Below are positions 7,562 to 49,853 of a stretch of DNA of 64,000 nt, in pieces; position 1 is the first letter of the stretch; each line of letters begins with the position of its first letter. The position numbers and the translations under genes were made by a program. The notes under the pieces are model-generated. The model was not told the DNA's origin. It did not search any database and saw only the letters and a list, made by a program, of their open reading frames with translations. Source of the DNA: Chitinophagales bacterium (GTDB lineage Bacteria; Bacteroidota; Bacteroidia; Chitinophagales; JADIYW01); assembly GCA_046329785.1 (NCBI GenBank), contig JAXLTZ010000016.1, forward strand, positions 599-64,598. Direction: 5' to 3'.

Positions 7562-10500
7562 AGACATGCAGCTTGACGATGGTTTTGAAGATGTTACAGA
7601 TGTAGCATTAGATAGCGGCTTTGAAGAAGTAGAAGTAAAAAAAAAAGATACTACTCAATCATCTGGTCAGCAATCAAGCACTACTACAAAAAATACTTCC
7701 CAATCCAACTTAAACTTAGGATTACAATTACCTACGGTTACACCAAATCCGAATAATATTGCATTGCCAGGTTTAGGTCAGCCATTCAAAAAACCAATTT
7801 CTATCAAATCAACGGCAGATGAGCAAAAACTGATAAATGCTAAACAAAAGCCGGTAATTTTTGAAGATTACAATACCATTATTAAACAGGGCGTTCAAGG
7901 TCAAAATAAATTTGACAATACTACACAGCCATTAACCAAAACTGTCACTGAACAGCAGGCAAAAAAAGATGTACAGCAGTTGCAGCAAAGACAGCAAACT
8001 GTCAAAGAAGCAAAAAAAGACAAGCACCAAAATATATTAGCGGTGATTCCTGAGTTGGCAGATGCAAAAAATACCGATGAAGCGATAAATACCATACTAA
8101 AGTCGGACCAGCGCAACAGTATAGATATGTGGCAGCAGTTCGATGATGAAACATTGCTTAATAATAATGAAACTGAATTAAATGACTTTTTAGTAAACAA
8201 AGGTCTTAAAAATCAGGAGCGCGAAACATATCTAAAAGAGCAGGCAGCATCGAATCCGAAATACGAATATGATTATCAGTATAATCAAATCGGATCATTA
8301 TACAAAGCGGTCAAACAACGCGCCGATGATTATGATATGGTGTTGCAACAGAAGTTCGGCGGCGACTATATGGATATTGCTAAACAAAATGATCCGCAGA
8401 TATTACAAGACGAAGATTTTAACAAATATGTCGCACTCCGCGAAAAACAAAATCAGCTTTCCATTAAAGCGAATGGACTGATCAATGATGATAAATTCAA
8501 AGAAGTAAAAAAATACCGCGATGACGCGCAGGCGGCTCAGGATAAAATCGATCAAAAAGCCAAAGATGATAAGTGGTATAAATTTGGTGATGAGTTAAGT
8601 TATGTTGACAGCAAACTTGCATACGCGCGCGGACACTTGGTGAAAATGATTGCAGAATTACCGGCGCTCGCAACAAGTATTGATAAAGGATATGATTGGA
8701 CTGATAAATTAGCAGACTGGGGAAATCGGTATTCTGATATGCTGATTGACAGCACTCCAACTTCTACCGATTTAAAAACAGGCGTATTCAATAAAATTGC
8801 CGATGTAGATGGCTACAAAGTATTTTTAGATGATAATGGTGACGCAACTGACGTGCGCGATAAAAATAATTTTAAGGTATCAGCAGCAATTTCGCAGCCG
8901 ATATTGGAAAAATACAGCGAAAATCCTGAAAATTATAAAGTAATAAAAGACAGAAATTTTTGGGCAGCGGCTGATAACGGACTGAATACTGTTATCGATA
9001 TGGGCGAAATGATACTCGGAACTAAAGGTGCAGGTTACATTGGCGCTGGTGAAAAAGCGCAGAAGCTGGCATCAATGGGAATTGCGTATCAACAAACTAA
9101 ACGCGATGTTTTCAATGATGCTATCAAAAAAGGATTAGATCCGCGTAATGCTGATTTGCTATCGAATATTATTGGTGTAACAGCAGGAGCCTCATCTGCA
9201 TTAAATCCACTGGAATACAATATCGCGAGCGGTAAAGGATTATTCAATTTTCTGAAAACAGAAGGATTGGACGCAGGCAAGTTGGCGTTGATTAAAGAAG
9301 GGAAATTAACTGTAAAAGATTACGCCAAAGAATTTGTGAAAGGCGCTATTAAAAATTCGATTGGTGAAAATATTGAAGAACTTGGTATAGAAAACACCAC
9401 TCAGGCAGTGGCAAATAATGTCTTCAATAATGCTATCAACGAAACGGATAAAGTAGATGGTGGATTGGATGATAAACTGCATATACTCGATAAGCAAGGA
9501 TTGGAAACCGCGCTGATCACAGCAGGTGCAGCTTTTTTAATGACACCTGTTGAAATAAGAAGTCAAACACAACTCAATCAGCAGGAAGCGCTAAAAATGG
9601 CAATTGAAAATCCGGAAGACTTTGCGCGTATCAAACAACTGCAATTAGAACGTGGTCATATTACTCAGGAACAATTAGATGCAGAAACCAAAATTTACGA
9701 TGAAGTTTCAAAATCGTACAATGCGGTAAAAGGCGATATTGATGAAAAGCTGCAACCGCAATTGTTGGCGCTATTGGCTAAAAAATATAATCTGCAAAAT
9801 AAGGTGAACGAAATCAGTGATGACGCACTATCGAAACCTTACAAAGAACAAATCAAAGCGATAAATGCAGGTATTGAATCTATTGCAGGCGGACAGGCGG
9901 CAGATGCAAATATTGCTTACGCAGCAGATACCAATATTGCTTACAATGAAAGTATAGATGAAATTAAGAGAAATAAAGAGTTAGACAATAAAGAAATCGA
10001 TGATAAAATTGCAAATATTGATAAAAATATTCCTCAATGGCAACAAGATCAACAAAAAGAAAAATTAGAAAAACAACGTACTGAGCAAAATGATTATTAC
10101 GAAAGTAAAATAAAATTATTAGGTCAGGCAACCGCAGCGGAAAGCGCCTCTACAATTGCAAAAGTGGAAACTGATATTGCCAATAAAATCAGCAGAGGTG
10201 AAGATTTGTCGGCAGAAGAAACCGACTATTACAATGCCAAAAAAGAAGATATTGATAAATTAGTTTCAAGTGAAACATATAAATCATCAACTGATAATGA
10301 AAAATCATCAATTGAAAATGCTATTACAGGGCAAGTCGAAGATAACAGCATCGGAGTTCAACGAAATCAATCAAACGGTGGAGCAGTGGAACAACGAAAT
10401 GCAACCGAAAATGTTAAAGAAAATACGCAAGAGTCACAGCAACAAAAAGGACAACCGCAATTAGATTTACAAAAAGAAATTGACGATAAAAAACAGATAA

Positions 10501-13500
10501 TTTCTGAATTGGAAGCAAATCCGAATAGTCCATTTCATAAATTGGTGGATTTAGACCAGGTTAAAAAAGAAGTTGCGGATCTTGAAGGTAAATTATCATC
10601 CTCTCTGTCTCAGCAAAATGATAAATTAGAAAGTCCAGTTGGCGCACAAACGAGCACCGAAGTCAACAACAAAGTTGATGAATCAAACACACAAACAGAA
10701 ACTTCTACTATAGAAGATAAATCTAAAGATGTTTTATCTGAAAAAGAAAAGCAGGATATTGTAAAATCTTTAGATAAGAATGAAATCAAACAGTTCCTTA
10801 AGTTAAAAACACCACAGGAAAGAACTCAGTTTTTAACTGATAAAAAAAATAGTGAGTATTCAAAAAAATACGATGCTAGTGAAAGCGAAGCTGAAGCACT
10901 TACTAGAATTACAACTGGCATTAAAGACTTGCCTGCTTCAGAACAACAAGCAGAAATTAAAAAGCGCGCGAACGATCATGCTGCTGAATACCAAAAATAT
11001 TTAGATAAAAATCCTATTTCAGAAGAAACGAAAAAATTACCTCGTGTTGCAAAGTTTGCTCAGCAAACAGCAAAGGCGATGCGTAACATTATAGATAATC
11101 CGGAAAAATGGCAATCTAAAACAGGCAAATCGTTTGAGAATGGAAGCAGAATTGATGAAAACGGCGATGTTATTCCGGAACAGATGTACATTGACCTAAA
11201 AGAAAAAGTGAAGTCTTTGCGCAAGCAAAATAAACTTGAAGAAATTGCAAAGATCAATGAAGCGCCTAGGCAATATTATGCAGACAATATTAAAATAAAT
11301 TCACAAAAAAATACTAAATTAGATAACAATGAGCAGTCAGGAAAAACAACAACAGAAAAACAACCCCCCAAAAACACCGAAAGAGAAAGCGTTGTTCAAC
11401 AAGATAATTCAAGCGGTAAAAACGAAGTAAGCAATGGAATACAGGAAAGCAGATCGGATGCTAATAAATTCAAATCAATACCAAAAGAAAGTTTTGATAA
11501 ATTAATAAATACTCTATCAAAAGCATTTCCAAATATTAAGATTTTCAGTGATGAAAAATTATTGGCTGAGAAACTTAAAAAATATAACAGCAGCGTTGAT
11601 CTTAAAACACCAAATGGTACTATTTATGGTGCTAAATTTCCAGATGGAACGATTTATATTAATACTGAAAATCTAAATGCCAATACACCAATACATGAAT
11701 TCGGTCACGTATGGGAAAAAGCATTCCCGGAAGATTTCGAGCGCGGTAAATTAATGCTTAGAAATTCAGAGCAGGGCAGAAAATTAATCGAAGAAACAAG
11801 ATTGAATCCAGCATATAAAGGATATTCACAATCGCAAATAGAATCAGAAGCACTAGTTGCTGCAATTGGAAATAAAGGTGAACAAATATTTAATTCTAAT
11901 CCGAAATTATTAGAGAAGTTCCAAACATGGCTAAATGATTTATTTGCAAAAATCTCAGACAGAATTGGTAAAATAACAGGAATAAAATCATTAGAATTTT
12001 CACCAGATACTACATTTGAAAACTTCACCAAACAGGTTGCTGGTCAATTATTGAGTGGTAAACAATTGGATGCATCTGTAAAAAATAGCGATAAAACCGA
12101 ATTACAATTTTCGCCTGATGAACTTAAATCACAGGTTGATGCATTGCGAAAAGAAGATTTCACAGACAACGAGATTCGTGATTATTTGTTAGAAGCAGGC
12201 AATACCAATGAACAAATTGATCAGGTATTGGGCAAGGAAGTATTTGGTATTAAAAAAGCAACAGTTCCACAGGATGTTATAGATGAGATTAGCATCGACA
12301 AAAAATCACACAAACAAATCTATGAAGCCGGAAAAGATAATGTTCAAAGCGGTGCGGTGGATCCAAGACAATTAGTTCAGGATGTTTTAAGCGGTGATAC
12401 ACTTGTCCTTGACGCGAACCAGGTTGCCGCACTCATCTATTACAGGGCACAGATCGATAATAAATTAAAAGCATCTACCGAAAAATTAAAAAACGAAGAT
12501 GGTGATTATTATCAGTTAAAAGCAAATCACGATGTATTATTACAAGAATTAGCCGATTATCACGAAATGGCAGTTCGTACAGCATACAATCAATCTGTTG
12601 CTTTTAGCATGAGAAAAATGCTAATTGATAATGAGTATAATGCACAAGCGCAGATTGCCAAATATAAAGCAGTAAACAATGGCAATATTTCTGTTGAAAA
12701 AGAACAAGAGTTTATCAAACTAGCAGATGATTATAAAGCTGCAGCCGATAAGATTGCAGAATTAGAAAATAAACTTTCTGAATACGAAGCGCAGCAAGCA
12801 CTCAATATAATTATTGAAGATAAAAAGAAAATATCGCCAGCAAGAACTCAGCGAAAACAAAAAGCAAAAAATCTTATAGCTGAAGGATTGGATGAACTTG
12901 CGGAAGCGTTAGGTACAAGATTAATGGCGGAAGGAAATGAAAGACCGAAACTTACAAAAGCATTAACAAAAATTGGTAAAGGCTTGATTGAAACCGGAGT
13001 AGCTTCAATTGAAGATGTTTATGATAAGATAATAGAAAAAGTTAAGGAAAAATTCGGTGATAAGGTTAATGTAGAAATCTATAAAAACGATGTAATTGCA
13101 GACCTGAAAAATATCTATACTAAAGCAACGGTAAAAAATGACGAACTGAATATTTCAAATGTTTTAATTAAAAATTTGGTTCAGAATGGCTACAATACAG
13201 TAGAGTCTTTAACTAAAAAATTAAAAGAAATAATATCTGAAACAACGCAGGATGTAACTGACAGACAGATACATGATGCAATTACAAAATATGGTAAAAC
13301 TACCAACCAATCAAAAGAAGAAATTGATCAGCAGATCACAAAGTTGAAACGAATAATGCTACTCACTTCTAAGATAGAAGATGCGCGCAATAAAAACAGA
13401 CCAAAGAAAACCGGTTTTATTCGCGATGAAGCATCGCCTGAAGAACGTGAAATGCAAAAGCAGCTAAATGAATTATTGAAAGATATTCCTCTTGACAGTG

Positions 13501-15425
13501 TAGATACTGAAAAGTTATTCAAAACCGCGCTGGAAAAAGTAAAAAAACGTTTACAAAACCAGATTGAAGACTTGGAACAACAAATCAAAACCGGCAAAAA
13601 AGAAGCACAGAAAAAAGGTATTGAGTATGATGAAGAAGCTAATAATCTTGTTAAGCGCCGAGATGAGTTAAAGAAAAAGCTGGAAGAAATATACGGTGCA
13701 ACAGGTACCTCTTATGAGCAAAGAGTGAAAACTGCGCTTCGCACGGTTAAAGCTGCCATTAGTGAATATGAGCGCCGAATACAGGAAAGCGATTTCAAAC
13801 GAAAAGAACAAAACAAATTAACGCCAACATCTGAATTGCAGCAAGAAAAAGACGCATTAAAAAAACTGAAAGACCAATATTTAGAAATGCGTAAGGATTC
13901 TGATGAAGCAGAGAATGAGCGCATCGATAGATTTAAAAAATCACTAAACAGAACAATTGAGCAATACAAGCGCAGAATTCGCGAAAAAGATTTCGCACCA
14001 AAAACAAGGAAAGAAAATCCTTATGACGAAGAAATTGGAAAGCTAAAACAAGAGCAGGCAAAAATTAAATTCCAATTTGAGAAAGAACAGGAATTAAACA
14101 AACTTGAAAACAGATCAACGTCTGAAAAAATCAAAGATGTTATTCTTGGCATTTTAAATATTCCTAGAATATTAAAAACCACTATTGACTTATCTGCACC
14201 ATTCAGGCAGGGCATTCGCTTAATGGCTGGACATCCTATTGAGTTCACTAGAGCATTTTTCAAGATGCACAAACTTGCTTTTAGCAAGAATGCTTATGAT
14301 AAATTCATAGCAGATTTTATTTCGTCAGATGCGTATAATGTAATTAAGGCATCTGGCTTGTCAATTACGGATGCAACAGGCGCACAAAAAGCGCGTGAAG
14401 AACAGTTCTGGAATAACATTATCAGTAATACACTCGAAAATAAAACGCTCAATAAATTCACTTTGGGAATACCAAAATTCCTGGATAATTATACATTCAA
14501 GGCATCTGAAAGAGGTTATTCTGGTTTCATCGATATGATGCGCATCAATGTATTTTTAGATGCGATGAAAGTAATGGAAAGGCAAGGCATTACTTTTGAA
14601 AATAATAAACAGGCATATAAAGAATTAGCTGCTTATGTAAATGCTGCAACCGGCAGAGGTGATACCGGTAGAATGGGACAAAGGACAATGGAAGTTTTAA
14701 ATTCTGTTTTCTTTTCTCCGAAGTTTATAAAATCAATGTATGATTATGTACGATCAGTCGCTAAGGCTACAACAGGTATTGGCTCAGAATTGCCAGCGCC
14801 GGTTAGAAAAATGATAGTAAAAGATTTTGTTGCATTTGTAGGAACAACCACACTATTAACGGCATTGGCACAAGCAGCGGTTAAAGGATTAGGTGATGAT
14901 GAAAAAGATTTGGAAACTGATGGCAGAAGCAGTGATTTTATGAAAATTGTTGCTGGCAAAACCAGATATGAGTTTTGGAGTGGCTACCAGCCAATGGTAA
15001 GAACTATTTGGCAATACATAACAGGTGAATCTAAGTCCATTAATAGTGGCGAAATCAAAAAAGTAGATGGAAGTATATTTGGCGGACGAGACAGAAATGA
15101 TCTGATTGTTGATTTTTTCGGCAATAAACTATCTCCAAATGCCAGCTTCATCTATAAATTCAATAAAGGAAAAGATGGTGCAGGAAATGAATTTGATGCA
15201 GGCAAAGAATTAAAAGATATGTTTATACCGATGTCGATCAATTTGTTTGCAGAAGAAATTGGCAACGATGAAAAACTATCAAAAATAGTAATAGATAATT
15301 TTTTGAACTTTTATGGTGTAAGTGTTCAGAATTTCTATAACGATATAAAGAAAGATAATACAAGTTCCGGAAACAATAAAAGCGAAGAAAAGCCTGAATC
15401 AAAGAAAAATCGCAACAAGCGGTAA
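7548..15425 (+). CDS. Giant (2625 aa) multidomain virion/ejection-type protein with a zincin HExxH motif
   Basis: Uninterrupted 7.9-kb ORF. HEFGH lies at nt 11694-11708 (residue 1383) in the context NTENLNANTPIHEFGHVWEKAFPEDFERGK. Long K/E/Q coiled-coil stretches are followed by a C-terminal hydrophobic segment (FVAFVGTTTLLTALAQAAV). Confidence 0.75.
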   Translation: MANDRDMQLDDGFEDVTDVALDSGFEEVEVKKKDTTQSSGQQSSTTTKNTSQSNLNLGLQLPTVTPNPNNIALPGLGQPFKKPISIKSTADEQKLINAKQKPVIFEDYNTIIKQGVQGQNKFDNTTQPLTKTVTEQQAKKDVQQLQQRQQTVKEAKKDKHQNILAVIPELADAKNTDEAINTILKSDQRNSIDMWQQFDDETLLNNNETELNDFLVNKGLKNQERETYLKEQAASNPKYEYDYQYNQIGSLYKAVKQRADDYDMVLQQKFGGDYMDIAKQNDPQILQDEDFNKYVALREKQNQLSIKANGLINDDKFKEVKKYRDDAQAAQDKIDQKAKDDKWYKFGDELSYVDSKLAYARGHLVKMIAELPALATSIDKGYDWTDKLADWGNRYSDMLIDSTPTSTDLKTGVFNKIADVDGYKVFLDDNGDATDVRDKNNFKVSAAISQPILEKYSENPENYKVIKDRNFWAAADNGLNTVIDMGEMILGTKGAGYIGAGEKAQKLASMGIAYQQTKRDVFNDAIKKGLDPRNADLLSNIIGVTAGASSALNPLEYNIASGKGLFNFLKTEGLDAGKLALIKEGKLTVKDYAKEFVKGAIKNSIGENIEELGIENTTQAVANNVFNNAINETDKVDGGLDDKLHILDKQGLETALITAGAAFLMTPVEIRSQTQLNQQEALKMAIENPEDFARIKQLQLERGHITQEQLDAETKIYDEVSKSYNAVKGDIDEKLQPQLLALLAKKYNLQNKVNEISDDALSKPYKEQIKAINAGIESIAGGQAADANIAYAADTNIAYNESIDEIKRNKELDNKEIDDKIANIDKNIPQWQQDQQKEKLEKQRTEQNDYYESKIKLLGQATAAESASTIAKVETDIANKISRGEDLSAEETDYYNAKKEDIDKLVSSETYKSSTDNEKSSIENAITGQVEDNSIGVQRNQSNGGAVEQRNATENVKENTQESQQQKGQPQLDLQKEIDDKKQIISELEANPNSPFHKLVDLDQVKKEVADLEGKLSSSLSQQNDKLESPVGAQTSTEVNNKVDESNTQTETSTIEDKSKDVLSEKEKQDIVKSLDKNEIKQFLKLKTPQERTQFLTDKKNSEYSKKYDASESEAEALTRITTGIKDLPASEQQAEIKKRANDHAAEYQKYLDKNPISEETKKLPRVAKFAQQTAKAMRNIIDNPEKWQSKTGKSFENGSRIDENGDVIPEQMYIDLKEKVKSLRKQNKLEEIAKINEAPRQYYADNIKINSQKNTKLDNNEQSGKTTTEKQPPKNTERESVVQQDNSSGKNEVSNGIQESRSDANKFKSIPKESFDKLINTLSKAFPNIKIFSDEKLLAEKLKKYNSSVDLKTPNGTIYGAKFPDGTIYINTENLNANTPIHEFGHVWEKAFPEDFERGKLMLRNSEQGRKLIEETRLNPAYKGYSQSQIESEALVAAIGNKGEQIFNSNPKLLEKFQTWLNDLFAKISDRIGKITGIKSLEFSPDTTFENFTKQVAGQLLSGKQLDASVKNSDKTELQFSPDELKSQVDALRKEDFTDNEIRDYLLEAGNTNEQIDQVLGKEVFGIKKATVPQDVIDEISIDKKSHKQIYEAGKDNVQSGAVDPRQLVQDVLSGDTLVLDANQVAALIYYRAQIDNKLKASTEKLKNEDGDYYQLKANHDVLLQELADYHEMAVRTAYNQSVAFSMRKMLIDNEYNAQAQIAKYKAVNNGNISVEKEQEFIKLADDYKAAADKIAELENKLSEYEAQQALNIIIEDKKKISPARTQRKQKAKNLIAEGLDELAEALGTRLMAEGNERPKLTKALTKIGKGLIETGVASIEDVYDKIIEKVKEKFGDKVNVEIYKNDVIADLKNIYTKATVKNDELNISNVLIKNLVQNGYNTVESLTKKLKEIISETTQDVTDRQIHDAITKYGKTTNQSKEEIDQQITKLKRIMLLTSKIEDARNKNRPKKTGFIRDEASPEEREMQKQLNELLKDIPLDSVDTEKLFKTALEKVKKRLQNQIEDLEQQIKTGKKEAQKKGIEYDEEANNLVKRRDELKKKLEEIYGATGTSYEQRVKTALRTVKAAISEYERRIQESDFKRKEQNKLTPTSELQQEKDALKKLKDQYLEMRKDSDEAENERIDRFKKSLNRTIEQYKRRIREKDFAPKTRKENPYDEEIGKLKQEQAKIKFQFEKEQELNKLENRSTSEKIKDVILGILNIPRILKTTIDLSAPFRQGIRLMAGHPIEFTRAFFKMHKLAFSKNAYDKFIADFISSDAYNVIKASGLSITDATGAQKAREEQFWNNIISNTLENKTLNKFTLGIPKFLDNYTFKASERGYSGFIDMMRINVFLDAMKVMERQGITFENNKQAYKELAAYVNAATGRGDTGRMGQRTMEVLNSVFFSPKFIKSMYDYVRSVAKATTGIGSELPAPVRKMIVKDFVAFVGTTTLLTALAQAAVKGLGDDEKDLETDGRSSDFMKIVAGKTRYEFWSGYQPMVRTIWQYITGESKSINSGEIKKVDGSIFGGRDRNDLIVDFFGNKLSPNASFIYKFNKGKDGAGNEFDAGKELKDMFIPMSINLFAEEIGNDEKLSKIVIDNFLNFYGVSVQNFYNDIKKDNTSSGNNKSEEKPESKKNRNKR

Positions 15426-15570: not shown

Positions 15571-16119
15571 ATGGCTAAAGTTAAATACGATATAGAAGTA
15601 AAAGGTGACTTCCTGGATAAATATCCAAGACTAAAATCTATTACAAGTGGAATAGATTTTACTAATAATAACATTAAAATCGACAGTTTGGTCAGGTATA
15701 TAGTATTCTACTATAGCGTATGGTCAACATTACACACTGATGTACCGGAATTCACTCAGCGTAAAAAGCACGCACTGTCAAAATTTAAAATTAGTCATTC
15801 TGTATTAAATAGTGAAGAATTCCTGAAAATTGAAGCAAGGCTGGCTTATAACTACATGGTGATTGAGAATGAAGCAGAATTCACCTACTGGATATCCATA
15901 ACTACATTTTTCCATAAAGCATGCTCAAATATCCTGAATGCCGAAGATTTGGATTCTAATGATTTGAAAGAAACAATTAATAGTTCGAAAAATTTGGAAG
16001 ATTTAATGAGCAAGATCACTATTCTAAATAAAAAACTATTCGGTGACATTGAAGGATTTAAAGAAATGATGCAGGAAAAATCAAGCAAAGCTGGCTTTGC
16101 GGAACAATATGCTGAATAA
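15571..16119 (+). CDS. Terminase small subunit candidate (by position only)
   Basis: 182-aa ORF joined to the large-terminase gene by a TAATG overlap. I recognise no motif. Confidence 0.4.
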   Translation: MAKVKYDIEVKGDFLDKYPRLKSITSGIDFTNNNIKIDSLVRYIVFYYSVWSTLHTDVPEFTQRKKHALSKFKISHSVLNSEEFLKIEARLAYNYMVIENEAEFTYWISITTFFHKACSNILNAEDLDSNDLKETINSSKNLEDLMSKITILNKKLFGDIEGFKEMMQEKSSKAGFAEQYAE

Positions 16120-18296
16120 TGCTGTACACAGATAAATATACAGATTACGAAACATTTGCACAGATCGGCGAATATAGGGTAGAATTTCCAAAAATGCCGC
16201 CGAAGAATCAGATCATAAATTATGGTTTGCCTATTGAGAAACAAAAATTCAGACATACACAATACGAAATTAATGGACATAAAATATATGCTTATCAATT
16301 AAAGAAAAGCGTCTGGAATAAATTATCAGCGACACAGCAAAGTGAAATAGCAGCGACTGAATGGCAAAGAAGAAAACATGGTCAGTGGTATTATATTGGC
16401 GGCAAGACAATATATATTCCTGGAAATTTCTACCATTTTTTAAACTATTACACATTTATTGATGGCTCTAAACCTCAATTTTGGGATTCGCAGTGGTTCA
16501 GTTTTCTGTTAAAAGACTGGGCTTTTCATCATCCTTTTATTACTACCAAAATTAAAGTAAAAGGTCGCCGCGGCGGTGGTACCGCTGAAGATATATCCTG
16601 CAATCTAGATTATACTACTCGATATAAAGGTAGTATATCCGGAATGATGAATAAAAATAAAGACGAAGCTAAAAAGATCAATTTCGATCCAATGGTACAC
16701 GTCTTGGTAAATCTACCAGAGTTTTTTCAACCGAAAAGAAGTGGAGAATTAAAACCAAAATCTGAGATTGATTTTACGCCGCCTTCAAAACGCTTAACAC
16801 ATAAAAGTTTTGCAGCAGAGGAAACCGAATACGATAACGAAGACTACCTGAATAGTTATCTGAATTTCATTGCCACAAGTGAAGTAGGATATGATGGTGG
16901 TGGCATGCGTTACATTTCAATAGATGAGATTTTTAAATGGGCCAATGTTTCACCAATTAAAGCCATTGAAATACAATCGCTTTGTATTATGGATGGTGGA
17001 CAGAAGAATGGTGTTAAAGATGAATTCGGTAATATTAAAAAGCATGCTGGATTACTGTCGGCACTTTCATCTGTTGAAGAAATTGACGATGATCAAATAC
17101 AGGAAGTAAAGAAACTTTGGGATGCAACGGATCCAAAAACAGGCACCGAAAACACAATCAGTTCAACAGGTGCAATACGATACTTTGAACCATTTTATTT
17201 TGGTTTAAAAGGATATATGGATGAATTTGGTTTTAGCCAAACCGAACGCGCTATTAAAGAATACAGAGAACGTGAAGCGCAGATCAGAAAAACAAAAGGT
17301 AAAAAAGCAGCACTTGATTTTAGAAGAAAGCATCCTGAAACCATAGAACAGGCAATCACACCGAGTGCTGTTGGAAGCGTCTTCAATATTGAGATATTGA
17401 CGAATGCACGAAATAACTATTACAATAAATTACCGGATGACCTAAAGCCAATTTCTGGAAAATTGGAATGGATAGAAAAATTCAGGTCTGTAAAATGGTC
17501 GCCACTGCCGGAAGCAGAATTATTTGAAGCGCCATTTATATGCAGTTATATACCAAACAGCAATGAAAAAAATTCTATATCATATAATACAGCAGATCAA
17601 AGTTTCAAGCCAAATAATTATGGAAAATTCACGATAGCTGTCGATCCAATCAATCACGATATTGATGAAACTTCGCAAGAGAGTAAATTATCAAATGCAG
17701 CGTTCCGCGTGAAGCGCGAATTAGACCTCACGATTGATGGCGACAAATTTGATGAAAATGACGAGCCAATAAACTTTGGTGAAGGCTTTGAAACCAATAG
17801 AACGGTGATGCACTTTTGTTTCCGACCGGAAATAGCAGAACAATTTTTTGAATATGTAGCTATGGCAGCAATATTTTATGGTGCGCCGGTGCTTATGGCT
17901 GCAACATCGAAGTCTATGAAAAAATATTTCGTAGATAATTTACTGGGTAGTTTTTTAATCGACAGTGATGGCAAGCAGGTTACACCAAAAACACTTCATA
18001 CTGCCGGATGGAAAGAATCCAAAGAAGCAAAAGACCAACAATTTATCGAAACTGATAATTACATCGGAAGGTATGGTTTGGCAGAAAGACATATTGAGTG
18101 CATCGAAGATTTATTAGTGGTGAATAAGGCCAACTTAACACACCACGATTTAAGTGCATGCTATACAATCAGCGAAGTAGCAAGTACGCTTTTCAAAAAG
18201 AAATTCAACAAACCACAAACAGAGAGTGGAACAAAAAAAATACAGATAAGAAGAAAAATTATTAAACCTGGTAAACTCAGAGCGACATGGACTTAA
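16119..18296 (+). CDS. terL: Terminase large subunit
   Basis: Walker A-like KGRRGGGTAE, Walker B-like MRYISIDEIF and a nuclease-domain-like FTIAVDPINHD. The 725-aa size fits, and a portal-sized gene follows. Confidence 0.7.
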   Translation: MLYTDKYTDYETFAQIGEYRVEFPKMPPKNQIINYGLPIEKQKFRHTQYEINGHKIYAYQLKKSVWNKLSATQQSEIAATEWQRRKHGQWYYIGGKTIYIPGNFYHFLNYYTFIDGSKPQFWDSQWFSFLLKDWAFHHPFITTKIKVKGRRGGGTAEDISCNLDYTTRYKGSISGMMNKNKDEAKKINFDPMVHVLVNLPEFFQPKRSGELKPKSEIDFTPPSKRLTHKSFAAEETEYDNEDYLNSYLNFIATSEVGYDGGGMRYISIDEIFKWANVSPIKAIEIQSLCIMDGGQKNGVKDEFGNIKKHAGLLSALSSVEEIDDDQIQEVKKLWDATDPKTGTENTISSTGAIRYFEPFYFGLKGYMDEFGFSQTERAIKEYREREAQIRKTKGKKAALDFRRKHPETIEQAITPSAVGSVFNIEILTNARNNYYNKLPDDLKPISGKLEWIEKFRSVKWSPLPEAELFEAPFICSYIPNSNEKNSISYNTADQSFKPNNYGKFTIAVDPINHDIDETSQESKLSNAAFRVKRELDLTIDGDKFDENDEPINFGEGFETNRTVMHFCFRPEIAEQFFEYVAMAAIFYGAPVLMAATSKSMKKYFVDNLLGSFLIDSDGKQVTPKTLHTAGWKESKEAKDQQFIETDNYIGRYGLAERHIECIEDLLVVNKANLTHHDLSACYTISEVASTLFKKKFNKPQTESGTKKIQIRRKIIKPGKLRATWT

Positions 18297-26294: not shown

Positions 26295-26417
26295 TTATTT
26301 TGTTAGTAATTTATTTATAGCATCAATTATCAACTGAATATCTTCAATTGTTATATCAACAGGTAGCAACAATGTTCCTTGCTTTCCGAATGTCAGTATT
26401 ATTGGATATTCAGTCAT
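26295..26417 (-). CDS. Small hypothetical ORF (40 aa)
   Basis: MTEYPIILTFGKQGTLLLPVDITIEDIQLIIDAINKLLTK. Its ATG overlaps the HNH stop, and it fills an otherwise empty 126-nt gap. Confidence 0.3.
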   Translation of the reverse strand: MTEYPIILTFGKQGTLLLPVDITIEDIQLIIDAINKLLTK

Positions 26418-26976
26418 TATGCATTTTTAATTGCTGTTTATCTTTTAGTTTGAACCCAAAATCATTATTTGTTTTTTCTCTATGGCATTTTTTACATAGT
26501 ATTTGGTAGTTTGAAATCCAACCGCCGCCACCGCCATGCGCAACCGGTATAATGTGATCTAAATCGTGTGCAAAAAAATGTTCGCTTTCACCACATTTCT
26601 CACATTTTAAACCACCGATAATTTTTGATCTAAAAAACTTGATTGTTTCTACGCGTCCATTTATTATATTAAAAATGTTTACTGCAAAATCAGAACATTG
26701 CTTATTAGACCATCGTGTTTGCCTGCCTTTTAATTCTATACCACAACCGCAAGAACAAAACCTACCTTGCTTTGGAAATATAATTGATAATGAAACTTTT
26801 GGGTGTCTTAAATACGGATCTAAGCAACCCAAATCGTTTATTCTATCATATAAATCTTTTGGATTAAAGTTCAATACCCTGCTGATTAATTTTTCTCTGA
26901 TATCGTTAGAATCATTACTAAACGAAACTGGCATTCTACAAGATTCTGGTTGTATTTCGTATAATGTACCTTTCAT
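26410..26976 (-). CDS. HNH endonuclease
   Basis: DLDHIIPVAHGGGGGWISNYQILCKKCHREKTNND, plus upstream CxxC pairs. Confidence 0.8.
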   Translation of the reverse strand: MKGTLYEIQPESCRMPVSFSNDSNDIREKLISRVLNFNPKDLYDRINDLGCLDPYLRHPKVSLSIIFPKQGRFCSCGCGIELKGRQTRWSNKQCSDFAVNIFNIINGRVETIKFFRSKIIGGLKCEKCGESEHFFAHDLDHIIPVAHGGGGGWISNYQILCKKCHREKTNNDFGFKLKDKQQLKMHND

Positions 26977-27467
26977 CTTCTATATGAAATAAGTTTTGTT
27001 TCAGATTTACAATATAGAGGATGCTTAGGCGAGCCGTTTTTATTGACGGTTAATGCCTTTGCATTTGGAAACATTTCATACAACTCTCTATCTCTGCCTT
27101 TTTCGCTTACAATACTAAAATTTCCCCACGCAAAAACCACATCTTTACATTTACTTGCTGTAACAGTTATCAGATTATTATTCCATTCATCTGCCATTGG
27201 ATTTGTCTTCAATAATTTTGGATCTCTTGAAATGTATGTCCAACAATTCATCATATACATACCGCCGAAACCATTTGCTTTAGCTATGCGCATGCAACTT
27301 TTAATAGTTGGATCATTTTCGTTTTCATTGGCTGTTGACGGATTTAATCCGATAAACATTACAAGAGGTTTGTTTTCATCCCAAATACGCCACAATGAAT
27401 ACCTGTGTGTTCTGTCGTGTGAGAAAGAAGCACCTGTTGTATTTTTGATAAATAGTTGTGTTTTCAT
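26973..27467 (-). CDS. DUF1643-family protein
   Basis: RTHRYSLWRIWDENKPLVMFIGLNPSTANENENDPTIKSCMRIAKANGFGGMYMMNCW matches the DUF1643 pattern. Confidence 0.75.
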   Translation of the reverse strand: MKTQLFIKNTTGASFSHDRTHRYSLWRIWDENKPLVMFIGLNPSTANENENDPTIKSCMRIAKANGFGGMYMMNCWTYISRDPKLLKTNPMADEWNNNLITVTASKCKDVVFAWGNFSIVSEKGRDRELYEMFPNAKALTVNKNGSPKHPLYCKSETKLISYRR

Positions 27468-28133: not shown

Positions 28134-28643
28134 TTATAAATTTTTGTTATTAGTAAACGATATTGTATGCTGTGCGACAAGTTCTGAAATTTTGTTATCC
28201 CAAATATTGCCGACAACTTCGACAAAATTTAAAAAGTCGACTTTCAATTCATGGTGGTCGGAAAATGGCGTAGCATATCCATAATTATTTTGGTCAGCTC
28301 TTTTATAACCGAAATAGGCATAATCTTCCTCAAATACAACGGTAGCAAAAAAAGTAGGTAGTAAATATTTTTCGTGTTCCGTGTATTTAATTATATCACC
28401 TTCAAAAATTGGCGTTCCGTTTTTATCTTTTAAGCCAGTACATTGCGTAACCGTATTGCTTTCAACATTATAAAAACTTGTTTGAAACTCATTGTCTAAG
28501 TCAGGCAGTTTAGTAATGTAGTGATATAAACTACCATCATAATATTTATGAAAATCACCATAAACAAAAGCTGTTTTTTCGTATCGTTCAGGAAACTTTT
28601 GTACTCTGACAAATCCCCGACCTCTGTATGTGTTTCTATCCAT
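28134..28643 (-). CDS. YopX-family protein
   Basis: TGLKDKNGTPIFEGDIIKY is the typical YopX core. Confidence 0.7.
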   Translation of the reverse strand: MDRNTYRGRGFVRVQKFPERYEKTAFVYGDFHKYYDGSLYHYITKLPDLDNEFQTSFYNVESNTVTQCTGLKDKNGTPIFEGDIIKYTEHEKYLLPTFFATVVFEEDYAYFGYKRADQNNYGYATPFSDHHELKVDFLNFVEVVGNIWDNKISELVAQHTISFTNNKNL

Positions 28644-28686: not shown

Positions 28687-29268
28687 TCAATATTCAATTT
28701 TATTGTTCCAACAAATGATTTGCCCATCAAACGATTTGTTCTTTTTAAATTTAGGTGAAAGAAAAAACCAATTTTTAAAATCTATAATTTCCAGTCCATC
28801 GTTTTTGGCTATTAATGATATATCAGTTATCTCTCTACATGATTGATCTTTTTCGCTTTCAATAAAAAATCTATCGTTTTGAATTTGGAAATACCATGTC
28901 TTCACTACTTCAACATCTGGTGCTATAATTATTTGTTTACTATTGTAAGGTTTGCCACTCCATACTCTTGGACTGAATTTATCGCCTGCTTTGAATCTGT
29001 GTCCTGAACGAATTGTGTGATGCTTTGGCTCATATTTATCGCTGTAATTTCCTATTTGTTTTATAAATTCGGAAATGATTAAATACGGCTTATCCTTATT
29101 CAATTCATATAAATCGTCAGGGTTGGGGTAAAAGTGCGTAGGTGTATTAGGTGTAAAGCAAACTGTCGCACGAAATGAACTCAAAATCTTCTCAATAAAA
29201 TAAGTTGGTTGTCCTTTCTTCGGATGATAACTAGGATATGTTCTGCTGAATGTAATTACTCTTGCCAT
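28687..29268 (-). CDS. Hypothetical protein (possible ASCH/PUA-like fold, weak)
   Basis: KHHTIRSGHRFKAGDKF is reminiscent of ASCH-type motifs, but this is not decisive. Confidence 0.45.
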   Translation of the reverse strand: MARVITFSRTYPSYHPKKGQPTYFIEKILSSFRATVCFTPNTPTHFYPNPDDLYELNKDKPYLIISEFIKQIGNYSDKYEPKHHTIRSGHRFKAGDKFSPRVWSGKPYNSKQIIIAPDVEVVKTWYFQIQNDRFFIESEKDQSCREITDISLIAKNDGLEIIDFKNWFFLSPKFKKNKSFDGQIICWNNKIEY

Positions 29269-29269
29269 C

Positions 29270-29509
29270 TTACAATATTTTAGTGTTTTCGGTATCTATG
29301 TTTAATTCTGTTCTATAATCAATTCTTTCATGCGGATAGGTAAATGTGTATATGAAATCAAGCCACAACTTATTCATCTTTATCTTTGCTTCTTCCGGCG
29401 AAATTTGTTTTAGATCCAGATCATCAATTATTAATGCACACTTATTTTTTATTTCCTTTGCACGTTCAAAGAATTTCGGTTGATCTATTGATTTAGGTAA
29501 ATTTGACAT
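29270..29509 (-). CDS. Hypothetical protein
   Basis: 79-aa ORF in the operon. Confidence 0.45.
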   Translation of the reverse strand: MSNLPKSIDQPKFFERAKEIKNKCALIIDDLDLKQISPEEAKIKMNKLWLDFIYTFTYPHERIDYRTELNIDTENTKIL

Positions 29510-29518
29510 ACACGTTAT

Positions 29519-31798
29519 TTATACTGCTTGTTGTAATCTTATTTCTCTAAGTTTTGCACCTAATGCTTCCGCCATCACTTTAGGTACTTTTGGACAAACA
29601 CTATTTCCGATGAATTTTTTCTGATCGGTTTGATTTCCCTCTAAAATGTAACTTTCTGGAAAACCTTGAATCTTCTTTAATTCTGAAATCAAAAGCATGC
29701 GCATTTTAATATCGATGATTCCATAAAGTGCCATGAATTCTTTGATTAGCTTTAAGTAGTGGCTATCACTTTCATATATCACAATTGCAACATTTCCGTC
29801 TTCTGTAGAAACCAGATATGGCGGTGCTTTGTCCATACGCGCAATTAATGTGAAGCAAGGTTCATCAACACTTGCATTTGATTTGTTAAACCACTGTGGA
29901 TTCATCAGATAATAATGTCTTTTCGAAGCCATTAAAGTTGGACAAGGCTCATAAGTGCTTGTACCAATGTTATTGTAATTGGTGTTCAGTATGAATGGTT
30001 CGCATTTTACTAAACCTAATTTTGGAATTGTTGTAATTGTTCCGCAAGGTTCATCTATGCTTGAATTAGTTGCACTTTTAAATTCTCTGTAGATAAAGAA
30101 TTTAGGATATACAAGATTGAAACGATCTTTTGTTGGAAGCACCGGACAAGGTGAATTTACTGAAGAAACATTTTCACCACTTCCATAGTAAGCTGCTAGG
30201 AATTTGGTTTCAACGAGCGCTTGACTATCTACGGTTTTAATAACGCCAGCAGGTTGATCTACGGAAATGTTTTTACCATCAGGTCTGCCACTAAAGTATT
30301 TTGTAATAAAAAATGGTTGTACTACATGCTGATTGCCGCCGGTAGATGTTAGTGTTCGTGCAGGTTCATCAACAGAAACAACTTTAGATTTCGGATCACC
30401 AGAATTGCGCTGCATAATAAATTTTGTATGCACTAAAGCAAATCTGTTATTTGTTGTTACAGTACCACATGGATTATTTACAGATGAATTTCTTTGTTCC
30501 GGATTGCCGGTATAATATCTTGACAAGAAATAAGAAGCCTGCACCAGATTTATTCTGCCTTGTGTGCTAACAACCGGACATGGATCATCAACACTTGGCG
30601 GAACATATTTGCCTGTTTTACCATTAACAGAATTATATTTTAATAAAAATTCAGCTTTACCACCTGCAACAAATTTTATCAAACCTGCGTATATACGCTC
30701 TAGTGTTTTTTCACTATATGGATCGTAACGGTAATATTTAACTTGGTCAATTGTTAGATTGTGTAACTCTAAATATTCCTGAAGCCGTGTGTCAAATTGA
30801 TCTACCTGTTTTTCAGTGATCACTAACATTGGCTGCATGCCAAATTCTGGTTTTTCAATCGATGCCGGAAATACAACAATAGTACGCGGCGGTGCTTCCT
30901 TTCCTTTGGATGATGCTTTTTTCTCTTTTTTAATGCTCAAATATTTAATGGCTGATTTGTAGCATTTATCGTGTAGAATATCAAATATTGATTTACCTTC
31001 TTCTTTAAAATTCAATACTTCTTTTACCGGTCTGTATTTTTTTAAGTTCTGATTTTTATACAAACCGACTTTGGGATTTTTTGCATGCGTAGCTTGTGGC
31101 CAAATAATCGGCAACCCTTTTTTAGCGAATATTCCAAATAAACGGTTCCTGGAAGTGTGCGCGCCGAAATCAGCACTATTCAATTGTTTCCAATCATCAT
31201 TGTAACCGAATTCTTTTACATTCTCACGCCATTTCATAAAGTCGGTACCATTTTTTCGGCTGATTGGTTTTCCTTTTTCGTCAAGTGGTCCCCAAGACAT
31301 AAATTCAACAACGTTCTCGATCATTATATAATCAGGATCGAGTATTTGTATATAGCTTTTGCCATCATAATATTTTTTTGTAACCGGATTGTATAGTTTG
31401 TATAATGATTCTGCGAGCGTTCTGCTGTCAGCTTCGCGAGCCATGCCACCTTTTGCTTTACTGAAATTTGTACACTCCAGTGATGCCCAAAGAATAACCT
31501 TAGCATTTGGATAACGCTTGCGTGCTGCATCTACAATTCCTTTCAGTTTAATGAAATCCATCAATCGTATATCTTCCTCGAAGTGGAATACTTCAGGATG
31601 ATTACGCCAGTGGCTAAGTATTGCAATAGGATCGTGGTTGACGCATGCAACAACTCTGCAAATCTTTTTACCATCCAACATAGATTTCATAAAACCTGTA
31701 CTCGTTCCGCCTGCACCACAGAACAAATCAATAATAATAAGTTCGACTTCTTTGTCGATTGTAAATTCTTCAATAAATGGAAATCCTGCTGCTGACAT
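29519..31798 (-). CDS. DNA (cytosine-5) methyltransferase with eight tandem TRD-like modules
   Basis: Motif I IIDLFCGAGGTSTGF, then LECTNFS, IMIENVVEF, TSRNRLFGI and the C-terminal QGFPESY...IGNSVCP. Eight S-V-D-x-P-x-x-T modules lie between residues 402 and 662. Confidence 0.85.
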   Translation of the reverse strand: MSAAGFPFIEEFTIDKEVELIIIDLFCGAGGTSTGFMKSMLDGKKICRVVACVNHDPIAILSHWRNHPEVFHFEEDIRLMDFIKLKGIVDAARKRYPNAKVILWASLECTNFSKAKGGMAREADSRTLAESLYKLYNPVTKKYYDGKSYIQILDPDYIMIENVVEFMSWGPLDEKGKPISRKNGTDFMKWRENVKEFGYNDDWKQLNSADFGAHTSRNRLFGIFAKKGLPIIWPQATHAKNPKVGLYKNQNLKKYRPVKEVLNFKEEGKSIFDILHDKCYKSAIKYLSIKKEKKASSKGKEAPPRTIVVFPASIEKPEFGMQPMLVITEKQVDQFDTRLQEYLELHNLTIDQVKYYRYDPYSEKTLERIYAGLIKFVAGGKAEFLLKYNSVNGKTGKYVPPSVDDPCPVVSTQGRINLVQASYFLSRYYTGNPEQRNSSVNNPCGTVTTNNRFALVHTKFIMQRNSGDPKSKVVSVDEPARTLTSTGGNQHVVQPFFITKYFSGRPDGKNISVDQPAGVIKTVDSQALVETKFLAAYYGSGENVSSVNSPCPVLPTKDRFNLVYPKFFIYREFKSATNSSIDEPCGTITTIPKLGLVKCEPFILNTNYNNIGTSTYEPCPTLMASKRHYYLMNPQWFNKSNASVDEPCFTLIARMDKAPPYLVSTEDGNVAIVIYESDSHYLKLIKEFMALYGIIDIKMRMLLISELKKIQGFPESYILEGNQTDQKKFIGNSVCPKVPKVMAEALGAKLREIRLQQAV

Positions 31799-34073: not shown

Positions 34074-34781
34074 TCATTTTCTGTTTAATTCGTGTGCTTC
34101 TTTTGCTGTAGATCCTGATCCACCGAACGGATCATAAACTATGTCATTTTCATTTGACCAGGTTGTTATCTGATCGCGCGCTAAACCTTTTGGGAACGGT
34201 GCAGGATGTCCAGTTCTTCTGCTACCTAAAGTGTACGCAAACAGGTTAGATTTAATCTTTTCGTCATTCGTTATTACTTCCTGATCCCTTCTACGTTGCG
34301 CGCCTTCCTTTATCGTTTCACAATAACCTTTTCTTTTTAGGTTGTATTTTTTACCTGCACCTTTACACGGTATCATTATCGGATTAAAAGTTTTAGGTTT
34401 TCCTTTGCTGAACACGAACATATATTCAAAGCCTTGTTCATATCGGTTGTGCGTCAATGGTATAAAATTTTCTTTAACGTAAATCTGTGTATCGTGCAAT
34501 CTGAAGCCACATTCCATAAAGAAAAGTGCTTGTCTGAAAGCGGTTCCTGATTCTGAACCGTTAATAGTTTGATCTGCTACAACCCAAACAACAACGCCAC
34601 CAGGTTTTGTTATTCGGTACAGATTTCTTGCGATATGCTTGAACGGAAATTTAAAACCTTTGTAATCACGTAATTTATCATAAGGTGGACTTGATACCGT
34701 TAGATCGATAAAATTATCCGGTATTCTTTCACGCATAGTGATAAGTGCATTTTCCTGATATATTTTGTTTAGTTCTAACAT
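34074..34781 (-). CDS. Beta-class N4-cytosine/N6-adenine DNA methyltransferase
   Basis: DLTVSSPPYDKLRDY (SPPY) lies N-terminal and VYDPFGGSGSTAKEA (FxGxG) lies C-terminal. Confidence 0.8.
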   Translation of the reverse strand: MLELNKIYQENALITMRERIPDNFIDLTVSSPPYDKLRDYKGFKFPFKHIARNLYRITKPGGVVVWVVADQTINGSESGTAFRQALFFMECGFRLHDTQIYVKENFIPLTHNRYEQGFEYMFVFSKGKPKTFNPIMIPCKGAGKKYNLKRKGYCETIKEGAQRRRDQEVITNDEKIKSNLFAYTLGSRRTGHPAPFPKGLARDQITTWSNENDIVYDPFGGSGSTAKEAHELNRK

Positions 34782-48347: not shown

Positions 48348-49853
48348 TTATTCTGCCGTTTTAAAAGTGAATAATACTTTTGCTTGTTGTCCTGCTGACT
48401 GTGCTTTCGTTTTAGCCGTTTTAGTTGTACGTCTGCCTGTGTTTCGTTTCTGGTAGTCGGTTTGTTCTTTGGCTTCAAATAATACATATCCTTTGATCTC
48501 TGCTACTTTTTTATTGAATAATTCCCAAACTTTTTCATCTTTAAATTCAAAGTGCATATTTCCATTTTTATAACCTTTGTATTTGAAAAAGTGGCTTGTG
48601 TACCATTCGCCGTAAGAATTTCTATTTATACTGTGGTTTACGGTGTTTGTAATTGCTGAATAGTTTTCACCAGTAATAAAACAAAGTGCTTTTTCAAAGT
48701 CTGGAATAATTCCATCATAACTACTTGTTAAATAACTATAAGTTTCTGAAGTATAGCCGTATTGTTTTGCTTCACTAATCATATTAGGCAAAATAAATTT
48801 CTTACCTACTAAAAAATGACTGTTTGTTTTCCATCCTTTCACATTATATCTATTATCGTGGTGGCGTTCTGTCACTCTGTCGAATACTTCAATAATTGCT
48901 TTGTTCATGCGCTGCTCTTGCGTACCTATCACTATTTCAAGCATTTTATAAATATTACGCATCGTAAATGGTATGTTTGTTTGTTGCTCAACAAATTTAT
49001 TTATATCTTCTCTTAGCCCTCTGGTTGTGTACTTTTCCATTTTCAAAAGATTAAAAATGTATTTCCATGCATCTTTTTGCAGTTCTTTTTTAAATTCAGT
49101 TCGTGTCTGATTTATTTCGTGTTCTGATGGCTCTTTATAGTTTTCGTTGTGATGAAATACACACGTTAAAGCGTTCATTTTTTGATCTATCATGTACTTT
49201 TCATCAAATAGTTTTACCGCTGCAACGTATCTATTCACCAGTTCTCTAACATTGTCGTGTTTTAAAATTCCATATCCTTGCGCTTCTTCCGGTTCGTCTT
49301 CTAAGAAAAAACCTTCAAATTCTGTATTATAACTTTCGCCTGGTTTTTGTATCCTTATCATTGATACGCTTACGCCTGTTTTACGTTCTGCAACCTCAAA
49401 ACATTGCCCTAAGTCTGTGATGTTTCCTTTTACTGCTTCAATAATACTTTTTAGCTCTTTTCTTGTTTGCGTTCCTGCGTTGTTTATTGTTTCGCTGTTA
49501 CATAGTGCTATAATTTTACAACCTTTCGGCGCAATATTGAAAGCGTGTAAAATATGTTTATCTGCGCTGCTAAATGGTGGATTCATTACGATATAGTCAA
49601 TATGGCTTATCTGGTGGCTTTCCACTTCTAAAAAATCGTTTCCGATAACTTTAGATTTACTTTGTAAAATCTTTCTTAAATCTTCGTTTTTTTCGCAAGA
49701 AAGAACACTTTTAGGGTTGTGCAGGTTTAAAAAATCTATTATGTCGCCTTTGCCTGCGCTCGGCTCTAAGAATGTTTTATTTTCGATTGTTACATCTTGC
49801 AACATCATTTCTATAACATTGTCTGGAGTTGGGAAAAATTCTTGATCAAACAT
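48348..49853 (-). CDS. N6-adenine DNA methyltransferase (gamma-class order) with a DUF4942-like C-terminal domain
   Basis: FLEPSAGKGDIIDFL (motif I) precedes IVMNPPFSSADKH (NPPF). A long C-terminal extension follows. Confidence 0.75.
   Translation of the reverse strand: MFDQEFFPTPDNVIEMMLQDVTIENKTFLEPSAGKGDIIDFLNLHNPKSVLSCEKNEDLRKILQSKSKVIGNDFLEVESHQISHIDYIVMNPPFSSADKHILHAFNIAPKGCKIIALCNSETINNAGTQTRKELKSIIEAVKGNITDLGQCFEVAERKTGVSVSMIRIQKPGESYNTEFEGFFLEDEPEEAQGYGILKHDNVRELVNRYVAAVKLFDEKYMIDQKMNALTCVFHHNENYKEPSEHEINQTRTEFKKELQKDAWKYIFNLLKMEKYTTRGLREDINKFVEQQTNIPFTMRNIYKMLEIVIGTQEQRMNKAIIEVFDRVTERHHDNRYNVKGWKTNSHFLVGKKFILPNMISEAKQYGYTSETYSYLTSSYDGIIPDFEKALCFITGENYSAITNTVNHSINRNSYGEWYTSHFFKYKGYKNGNMHFEFKDEKVWELFNKKVAEIKGYVLFEAKEQTDYQKRNTGRRTTKTAKTKAQSAGQQAKVLFTFKTAE

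Follow-up and report, generated by a model that had tools for sequence, protein, structure and literature searches.

The window analysed here, a 64,000-nucleotide (nt) stretch of contig JAXLTZ010000016.1 assigned to a Chitinophagales bacterium, is phage DNA carrying genes for a large terminase, DnaB, a replication initiator and an SbcC-like protein. Located in the phage replication module, one open reading frame (ORF) of 759 amino acids (aa), at 29519..31798 (−), encodes a C5-cytosine DNA methyltransferase (C5-MTase), in which an uninterrupted tandem array of eight diverged units, each of the size of a target-recognition domain (TRD), lies between motifs VIII and IX. All features of this gene described below lie on the same strand.

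The methyltransferase gene and its catalytic core

Pfam family PF00145 matches the ORF with E = 7e-27 and 95.1 bits (curated cut-off, 22), while TIGR00675 scores 72.7 bits, under its cut-off of 100.65, and NCBIfam and PHROGs return only generic 'DNA methyltransferase' labels. All blocks that an earlier note on this DNA had listed in proposing a C5-MTase with the usual block order are present in the translation. DLFCGAGG, IENV, QGFPESY and IGNSV follow one another in canonical order, and each is at least 90% conserved to invariant in the 120 nearest homologues (560–900 aa; 36–56% identity over the BLASTP-aligned region). Specifically, the sequence places motif I, the S-adenosylmethionine-binding loop IIDLFCGAGGTSTGF, at aa 22–36 (31691..31735), with no variation at D24, F26, G28, G30 and G31 across these homologues; motif VI, IMIENVVEF, at aa 158–166 (31301..31327); and motifs IX, MRMLLISELKKIQGFPESY, and X, KKFIGNSVCPKV, at 29585..29704, corresponding to the QGFPESY and IGNSVCP blocks (aa 699–738).

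Pro-Cys in motif IV is near-universal among C5-MTases. In the window enzyme, motif IV is the variant SLECTNFS (aa 106–113; 31460..31483), in which the catalytic Cys109, constant in the 120 homologues, is preceded by Glu and not by Pro, and motif VIII is the variant TSRNRLFGI (aa 215–223; 31130..31156). E-C-T-N and T-S-R-N-R thus stand in place of the usual PCQ and QxRxR, with both arginines retained. Both variants are constant in the 120 homologues and family-wide, and motif IV of the wider family is typically ECT[NH]FS. The motifs identify the ORF as a methylase, for which transfer to give 5-methylcytosine (5mC) is predicted. Two homologues, P0135 (1213 aa) and P0234 (939 aa), carry inteins (Hint/Intein_splicing) in the N-terminal catalytic domain, that of P0234 together with a LAGLIDADG domain; inteins usually occupy conserved sites in important enzymes.

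The array is flanked by two conserved segments. On its N-terminal side, homologues and the structural model define a helix, SEKTLERIYAGLIKFVAGGKAE (aa 362–383; 30650..30715), which is the conserved N-terminal part of the variable region. An 87-aa insertion (aa 275–361; 30716..30976), modelled by AlphaFold2 with low confidence, separates this helix from motif VIII; it is missing from most homologues, and a comparable insertion is present in P0047, P0072, P0094 and P0120. On the C-terminal side, a confidently modelled segment (aa 664–698; 29705..29809), whose first five residues are shared with unit 8, runs into motif IX.

The eight-unit array and its family

The array spans aa 384–668 (29795..30649) and is composed of eight units of 32–40 aa. 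A profile built from the eight modules proposed by the earlier note recovers all eight in the methylase, at exactly the starts given there (aa 402, 439, 475, 512, 546, 580, 616/617 and 643; nt 29810..30595), and the mean pairwise local score of the units is 40.2, compared with 17.6 ± 0.7 for residue-shuffled units (z = 33). Pairwise identity between units of the window enzyme is 15–53%. Tandem Repeats Finder detects no nucleotide-level repeat in the array DNA, indicating that the duplications are old and rejecting a recent duplication.

Alignment of units from many homologues shifts the register of the repeat. The aromatic/Gly-rich stretch that had been taken for a linker is the opening hydrophobic strand of the natural unit, which has the consensus F-[IL]-x-K-Y-x-S-G, loop, S-[VI]-D-x-P-x-x-[TV]-[LIV]-x-T, hairpin, L-V. 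The P-x-x-T-[LIV] element, previously assigned to every unit, holds for five of the eight; units 1, 4 and 5 carry Val in place of Thr (V-[VIL]). No two of the eight hairpin loops in the window enzyme are the same.

The methylase belongs to a large family. A protein search returned at least 8000 relatives, and IMG/VR holds at least 549 viral relatives. When the unit profile was scanned without prefilter against 1.84 billion protein cluster representatives, it matched 2174 clusters at a threshold of E = 1e-3, 988 at 1e-10 and 157 at 1e-30, with up to 12 matching stretches per protein; 72 full-length cluster representatives have 4–12 units. Isolated phages bearing such arrays infect Bacteroides, Porphyromonas, Tenacibaculum, Pseudomonas, Aeromonas, Klebsiella, Citrobacter, Pectobacterium, Burkholderia, Ralstonia, rhizobia, Myxococcus, Nostoc and Roseburia. 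The smallest array is that of Cellulophaga phage phi4:1 gp028, which has only two units and is 49% identical in the catalytic domain. This protein and Bacteroides phage BS-TP2 gp38, which has about eight units, share with the window enzyme the ECT[NH]FS motif IV and a terminal D-type unit (unit types are set out below), and both are annotated only as 'DNA methyltransferase'.

Eight units are therefore ordinary in this family, in the median-to-upper part of its range of 2–12, since every one of the 120 nearest homologues has 6–11. The view that eight units are exceptional holds with respect to described enzymes, all of which, to our knowledge, have fewer (3–5 specificities), but not within the family. 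A full-text literature search returned no description of this methylase family. Bacillus phages alone are given as the source of arrayed TRDs in a 2025 review co-authored by REBASE's founder, and likewise in a 2022 paper (PMC8936443).

Clustering of 974 units from the family yields about eight types, with fuzzy boundaries between types B, G and F, and gives the window enzyme the formula B-G-H-F-A-C-E-D. Unit 1 (aa 384–423; 30530..30649) is of type B with the core SVDDPCPVVSTQGRINLV; unit 2 (aa 424–460; 30419..30529) is of type G/B with the core SVNNPCGTVTTNNRFALV; unit 3 (aa 461–496; 30311..30418) is of type H with the core SVDEPARTLTSTGGNQHVV and is closest to the first TRD of the SPbeta methylase MtbP; and unit 4 (aa 497–533; 30200..30310), of type F/G with the core SVDQPAGVIKTVDSQALV, is closest to the second. 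Units 5 (aa 534–567; 30098..30199; type A) and 6 (aa 568–602; 29993..30097; type C) have the cores SVNSPCPVLPTKDRFNLV and SIDEPCGTITTIPKLGLV. The last two units are of types found in nearly all family members: unit 7 (aa 603–636; 29891..29992; type E; core TYEPCPTLMASKRHYYLMNPQ), and unit 8 (aa 637–668; 29795..29890; type D; core SVDEPCFTLIARMDKAPPYLV), which occupies the canonical TRD position. The order of types is conserved across the family, with a variable B/G/H/F set followed by A (one to three copies), C (one to four copies), E and D.

The family is modular. In 44 pairs of enzymes whose catalytic domains are at least 88% identical, the two members differ by one or two whole units, as exemplified by P0005 with the formula BBFAAACED, P0008 with BBFAACED and P0060 with BBFACED, whose catalytic domains are more than 91% identical. 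Furthermore, the variation between types is concentrated in one segment: identity at the framework positions (S, V, D, P, T and L) is 0.55 within types and 0.49 between types, while identity over the seven residues after [TV]-[LIV], which form the hairpin loop and are the counterpart of recognition loop II of M.HhaI, is 0.57 within types and 0.15 between them. The within/between contrast is partly circular, because the types were defined by similarity; the contrast between framework and loop is still informative. The loops of upstream units are near-invariant, for example GPARTLTSTGGNQ, across enzymes that are 36–50% identical overall.

Relation to known recognition domains and possible mode of action

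The layout of the unit, a strand, a loop, a T-[VL] pair and a hairpin, occurs once in M.HaeIII (residues 210–257; 1DCT) and once in M.HhaI (residues 238–291; GERIYSTRGIAITLSAYGGG). The unit pattern corresponds to residues 212–249 of M.HaeIII (starting with EYFIGSYS, core 232–244) and 238–272 of M.HhaI (T250-L251, SAYGGG loop). In M.HhaI, the target bases are contacted by T250-L251 and the loops on both sides, as its structure has established. Both enzymes share the catalytic fold with the window enzyme, and they differ in having a single such element, to which the units are only weakly similar.

Profile comparisons point to the same element. The top matches of the unit profile in M.HaeIII and in MtbP, whose TRD cores are SPTLTTMGGG (TRD1) and EPAFTVNTIDRHGV (TRD2), fall exactly on the TRD cores, at 4–9 bits; the score is 6.4 bits to M.HaeIII and negative to M.HhaI. 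Among type-specific profiles, G and F units match best on MtbP TRD2 (9–9.6 bits) and H and J units on TRD1 (6–8 bits). In BLASTP, units 3 and 4 of the window enzyme (30200..30418) align colinearly with TRD1–TRD2 of MtbP (aa 301–372) at a non-significant E = 0.6, an alignment that may have arisen by chance or may reflect descent from a common ancestor with two TRDs. The unit profile has no significant match among all PDB sequences, and the likeness to M.HaeIII and M.HhaI accordingly rests on pattern, position and weak scores. Homology of the units to TRD cores is well motivated by these sequence comparisons and statistically unproven. Of the TRD-like character claimed for the modules, the size, the [TV]-[LIV] core with flanking loops and a loop that separates types stand, but profile scores of this size fall short of establishing it.

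Structure prediction leaves the array unresolved. In AlphaFold2 models of the window protein with 120 homologues, the catalytic domain has a predicted local distance difference test (pLDDT) score above 90, and the array has scores of 30–60; a minimal six-unit homologue likewise gives a confident catalytic domain and an array at 30–60. No array fold is readable in either run, and only short β strands are predicted in each unit. A Foldseek search of the model against the PDB returns matches to the catalytic domain only (CP-933R prophage MTase 3G7U, DNMT1, M.HaeIII and M.HhaI). The low confidence would fit a flexible, bead-like arrangement of units that becomes ordered on DNA, or nothing other than a poor alignment.

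Nearly all known multispecific cytosine methylases come from a few Bacillus phages, on which work was done in the 1980s and 1990s. Those enzymes (M.SPRI, M.Phi3TI, M.Rho11sI, M.H2I and M.SPbetaI, the last being MtbP) resemble the window enzyme in being orphan phage enzymes with a single catalytic core, in having, between motifs VIII and IX, a variable region whose N-terminal part is conserved and whose remainder is made up of directly adjoining units of TRD size, and, for five of the eight window units, in the T-[LIV] core. They differ in that motif IV is P-C and not E-C, in having two or three active TRDs compared with 2–12 units, and in their Bacillus hosts, as opposed to Bacteroidota and many other phyla; their multispecificity is demonstrated, whereas that of the window enzyme is putative. 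The core of MtbP is distant from that of the window enzyme (BLASTP 26.9 bits, E = 0.002, 25% identity over 75 aa), and Bacillus phages are absent from the matches listed in two phage searches with the methylase. The largest number of specificities known to have been described in one C5-MTase is that of M.(phi)BssHII, likewise phage-derived; Sethmann et al. in 1999 (reference 59 of PMC8936443) reportedly found about five in this enzyme from a Bacillus stearothermophilus prophage. By its description, its TRDs stand at separated sites, which sets it apart from the single uninterrupted eight-unit array of the window enzyme.

We cautiously favour the reading that the window enzyme is an orphan C5-methylase of several specificities, which operates in the manner of the Bacillus-phage enzymes and whose independent targets probably number fewer than eight. 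A single catalytic core would be served by a variable region of eight diverged TRD-like units, each providing a [TV]-[LIV] anchor between two loops, the elements with which M.HhaI and M.HaeIII read their targets. By analogy with the Bacillus-phage enzymes, the units would be offered singly and in turn to the shared active site, such that several short sequences would be methylated in replicating phage DNA, and this methylation would reduce the effect of several Type II restriction systems of the host. The products of two other DNA methylase genes in the vicinity would strengthen the protection. Units E and D, present in almost every member, may form a constant scaffold or a base TRD, to which the variable upstream units would add targets. 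Whole-unit differences between enzymes with near-identical catalytic domains and the type-specific hairpin loops speak, indirectly, for independent modules. The identity of the methylase, the anatomy of the repeat, the modularity of the family and the phage setting are shown, whereas DNA contact by the units, their use one at a time, and the number and identity of the targets are what we infer.

Several observations weigh against this reading. In nearly all members the last units of the array are E-D, or D by itself, only about eight types occur, in a conserved order, and some relatives have tandem copies of the same type (AA, AAA or CC) with near-identical loops. These features agree with a fixed repeat domain no less than with freely shuffled TRDs. 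The 4–9-bit profile scores, the lack of a significant match in the PDB, the lack of structural support for DNA contact in the AlphaFold2 models and the E-C form of motif IV count on the same side, as does unit length: 32–40 aa, against 38–54 aa for Bacillus-phage TRDs as reportedly given by Trautner et al. in 1996. The literature yielded no measured specificity for any family member.

Restriction-site counts over the whole window (34.5% GC), expressed as observed/expected (O/E), bear on the reading in both directions. GGCC is the most avoided 4-mer (O/E 0.24), GGWCC has an O/E of 0.36, and the 6-bp palindromes AAGCTT, AGATCT and GTATAC are absent where 16, 13 and 12.7 are expected. CTAG is also avoided (O/E 0.43), CAGCTG occurs once where 11.5 are expected, ACATGT, CATATG, GTGCAC, AGTACT and CGATCG are absent despite 5–16 expected, and other 6-bp palindromes are depleted too. 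Not avoided are CCGG (O/E 1.28), GCGC (1.09), CGCG (1.0), GCWGC (1.09) and CCWGG (0.94), a set of classic 5mC targets that may hint at protected sites. On these counts, CCGG, GCGC, CGCG and GCNGC would be predicted to be protected and GGCC would not. The strongly avoided set indicates that protection is far from universal. Taken with the few unit types, their conserved order, the tandem same-type copies in relatives and the near-universal, perhaps structural, E and D units, it does not bear out the very broad self-protection that had been expected of eight modules.

Attempts to match unit types to targets were not successful. Across 72 viral, prophage and window loci, differences in k-mer bias followed GC content and clade, and none was robust after multiple testing. 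The one hint, a link of type H to weaker avoidance of GGWCC, runs counter to the window itself, which has a type H unit together with the low GGWCC ratio given above. The proposal, drawn from SPbeta TRD likeness, that units 4 and 3 read GGCC and GCNGC is unsupported in its GGCC part, GGCC being the 4-mer most avoided.

A bolder version of the favoured reading, which we regard as a tentative possibility, is that these enzymes form an undescribed and widespread family of hyper-multispecific phage C5-MTases, in which most of the 2–12 units are independent, exchangeable TRDs and a single enzyme can methylate at least six different motifs.

It is also conceivable, in our judgement doubtful, that the array is one composite DNA-binding domain, an extended β-rich small domain or clamp conferring one or a relaxed specificity and perhaps processivity, in which the number of units sets length or affinity and not target count. 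In favour, the [B/G/H/F]-A-C-E-D order, ending in E-D or D in nearly all members, is kept both family-wide and in 77 viral and prophage loci; the few unit types, the tandem same-type copies and the fact that the smallest member still has two units fit as well, as does the persistent strong avoidance of GGCC and many palindromes, and the short β strands predicted in each unit could extend a sheet. A cooperative closed fold is, however, hard to square with the gain and loss of single units at 88% or higher catalytic identity and with unit numbers that span 2 to 12. Moreover, the loops are type-specific while the framework is generic, and AlphaFold2 finds no compact fold despite confident catalytic domains.

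That the array consists mostly of relics, with one to three active TRDs (likeliest D, perhaps E or C) and the remainder pseudo-domains or folding spacers, we consider unlikely. The near-invariant loops of upstream units, whose types are kept in enzymes 36–50% identical overall, indicate purifying selection and not decay. What speaks for relics is that types E and D, present in nearly all members, are the best conserved, that unit 8 stands at the canonical position beside motif IX, that Thr is missing from the T-[LIV] pair of units 1, 4 and 5, and that pseudo-TRDs are said to have been described in Bacillus-phage enzymes by Lange et al. in 1991 (Nature 352:645).

It is very improbable that the protein is not an active DNA 5mC methylase and has instead an altered chemistry or substrate, for example a different alkyl donor or a different nucleic acid. 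The family-invariant replacements of Pro-Cys by Glu-Cys and of Q-x-R-x-R by T-S-R-N-R could be read in this way, and C5-MTase homologues with other chemistry do occur in phages, CmoX being one (PMC12783734). This is made unlikely by the intact state of all other catalytic residues: the catalytic Cys, ENV, both motif VIII arginines and motifs I, IX and X. In addition, there is no cofactor-synthesis gene among the neighbours examined, and the inteins in the catalytic domain of two homologues suggest an important, active enzyme. A closed β-propeller, or a TALE-like code of one unit per base, is unlikely given the spread of unit numbers from 2 to 12 and the gain and loss of single units.

If the units are real TRDs, a much more extreme anti-restriction device than that of the Bacillus phages would be common in phages of Bacteroidota, Proteobacteria, cyanobacteria and Firmicutes, and nature would hold a toolkit of recognition modules of about 35 aa for engineering methylase specificity, with a bearing on phage-therapy host range and on the reading of 5mC patterns in metagenomes. 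Should the hyper-multispecific version be true, these would be the most polyvalent DNA methylases known. We know of no structure that explains how several recognition domains share one catalytic site, a question that the natural one-unit deletion series could then solve. If the units are structural instead, they would represent a new kind of small domain for C5-methylases.

Phage context and neighbouring genes

The placement of the methylase in the phage replication module, next to other methylase genes, is the setting of an anti-restriction orphan methylase. Directly upstream and translationally coupled to it is a gene for a Dam-like N6-adenine methyltransferase (PF05869; 31798..32547 (−)), the stop codon of which overlaps the ATG of the C5-MTase gene by 1 nt (TAATG). 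An N6_N4 MTase (PF01555, 1e-30) is encoded at 34074..34781 (−), and a methylase-like DUF4942 protein, whose N-terminus matches phage 'DNA methyltransferase' PHROGs, at 48348..49853 (−). Two extra DNA methylases and a methylase-like protein suggest that the phage invests heavily in methylation as a counter to restriction.

Likewise, genes of phage replication and recombination (RecT, DnaB and YopX) surround the two homologues examined on long bacterial contigs (L003 and L004), and the genes neighbouring these homologues contain no nuclease or restriction-enzyme Pfam match. The window methylase is itself an orphan phage or prophage gene, without a partner endonuclease.

Downstream of the methylase lie small genes for an HNH endonuclease (26410..26976 (−)), a DUF1643 protein (26973..27467 (−)) and a YopX protein (28134..28643 (−)), and for two proteins without a Pfam match, one at 28687..29268 (−), which matches phrog_8581 of unknown function, and one at 29270..29509 (−). 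Elsewhere in the window, the large terminase gene (16119..18296) is preceded by a giant ORF of 2625 aa (7548..15425 (+)), which has no Pfam match at E ≤ 0.01.

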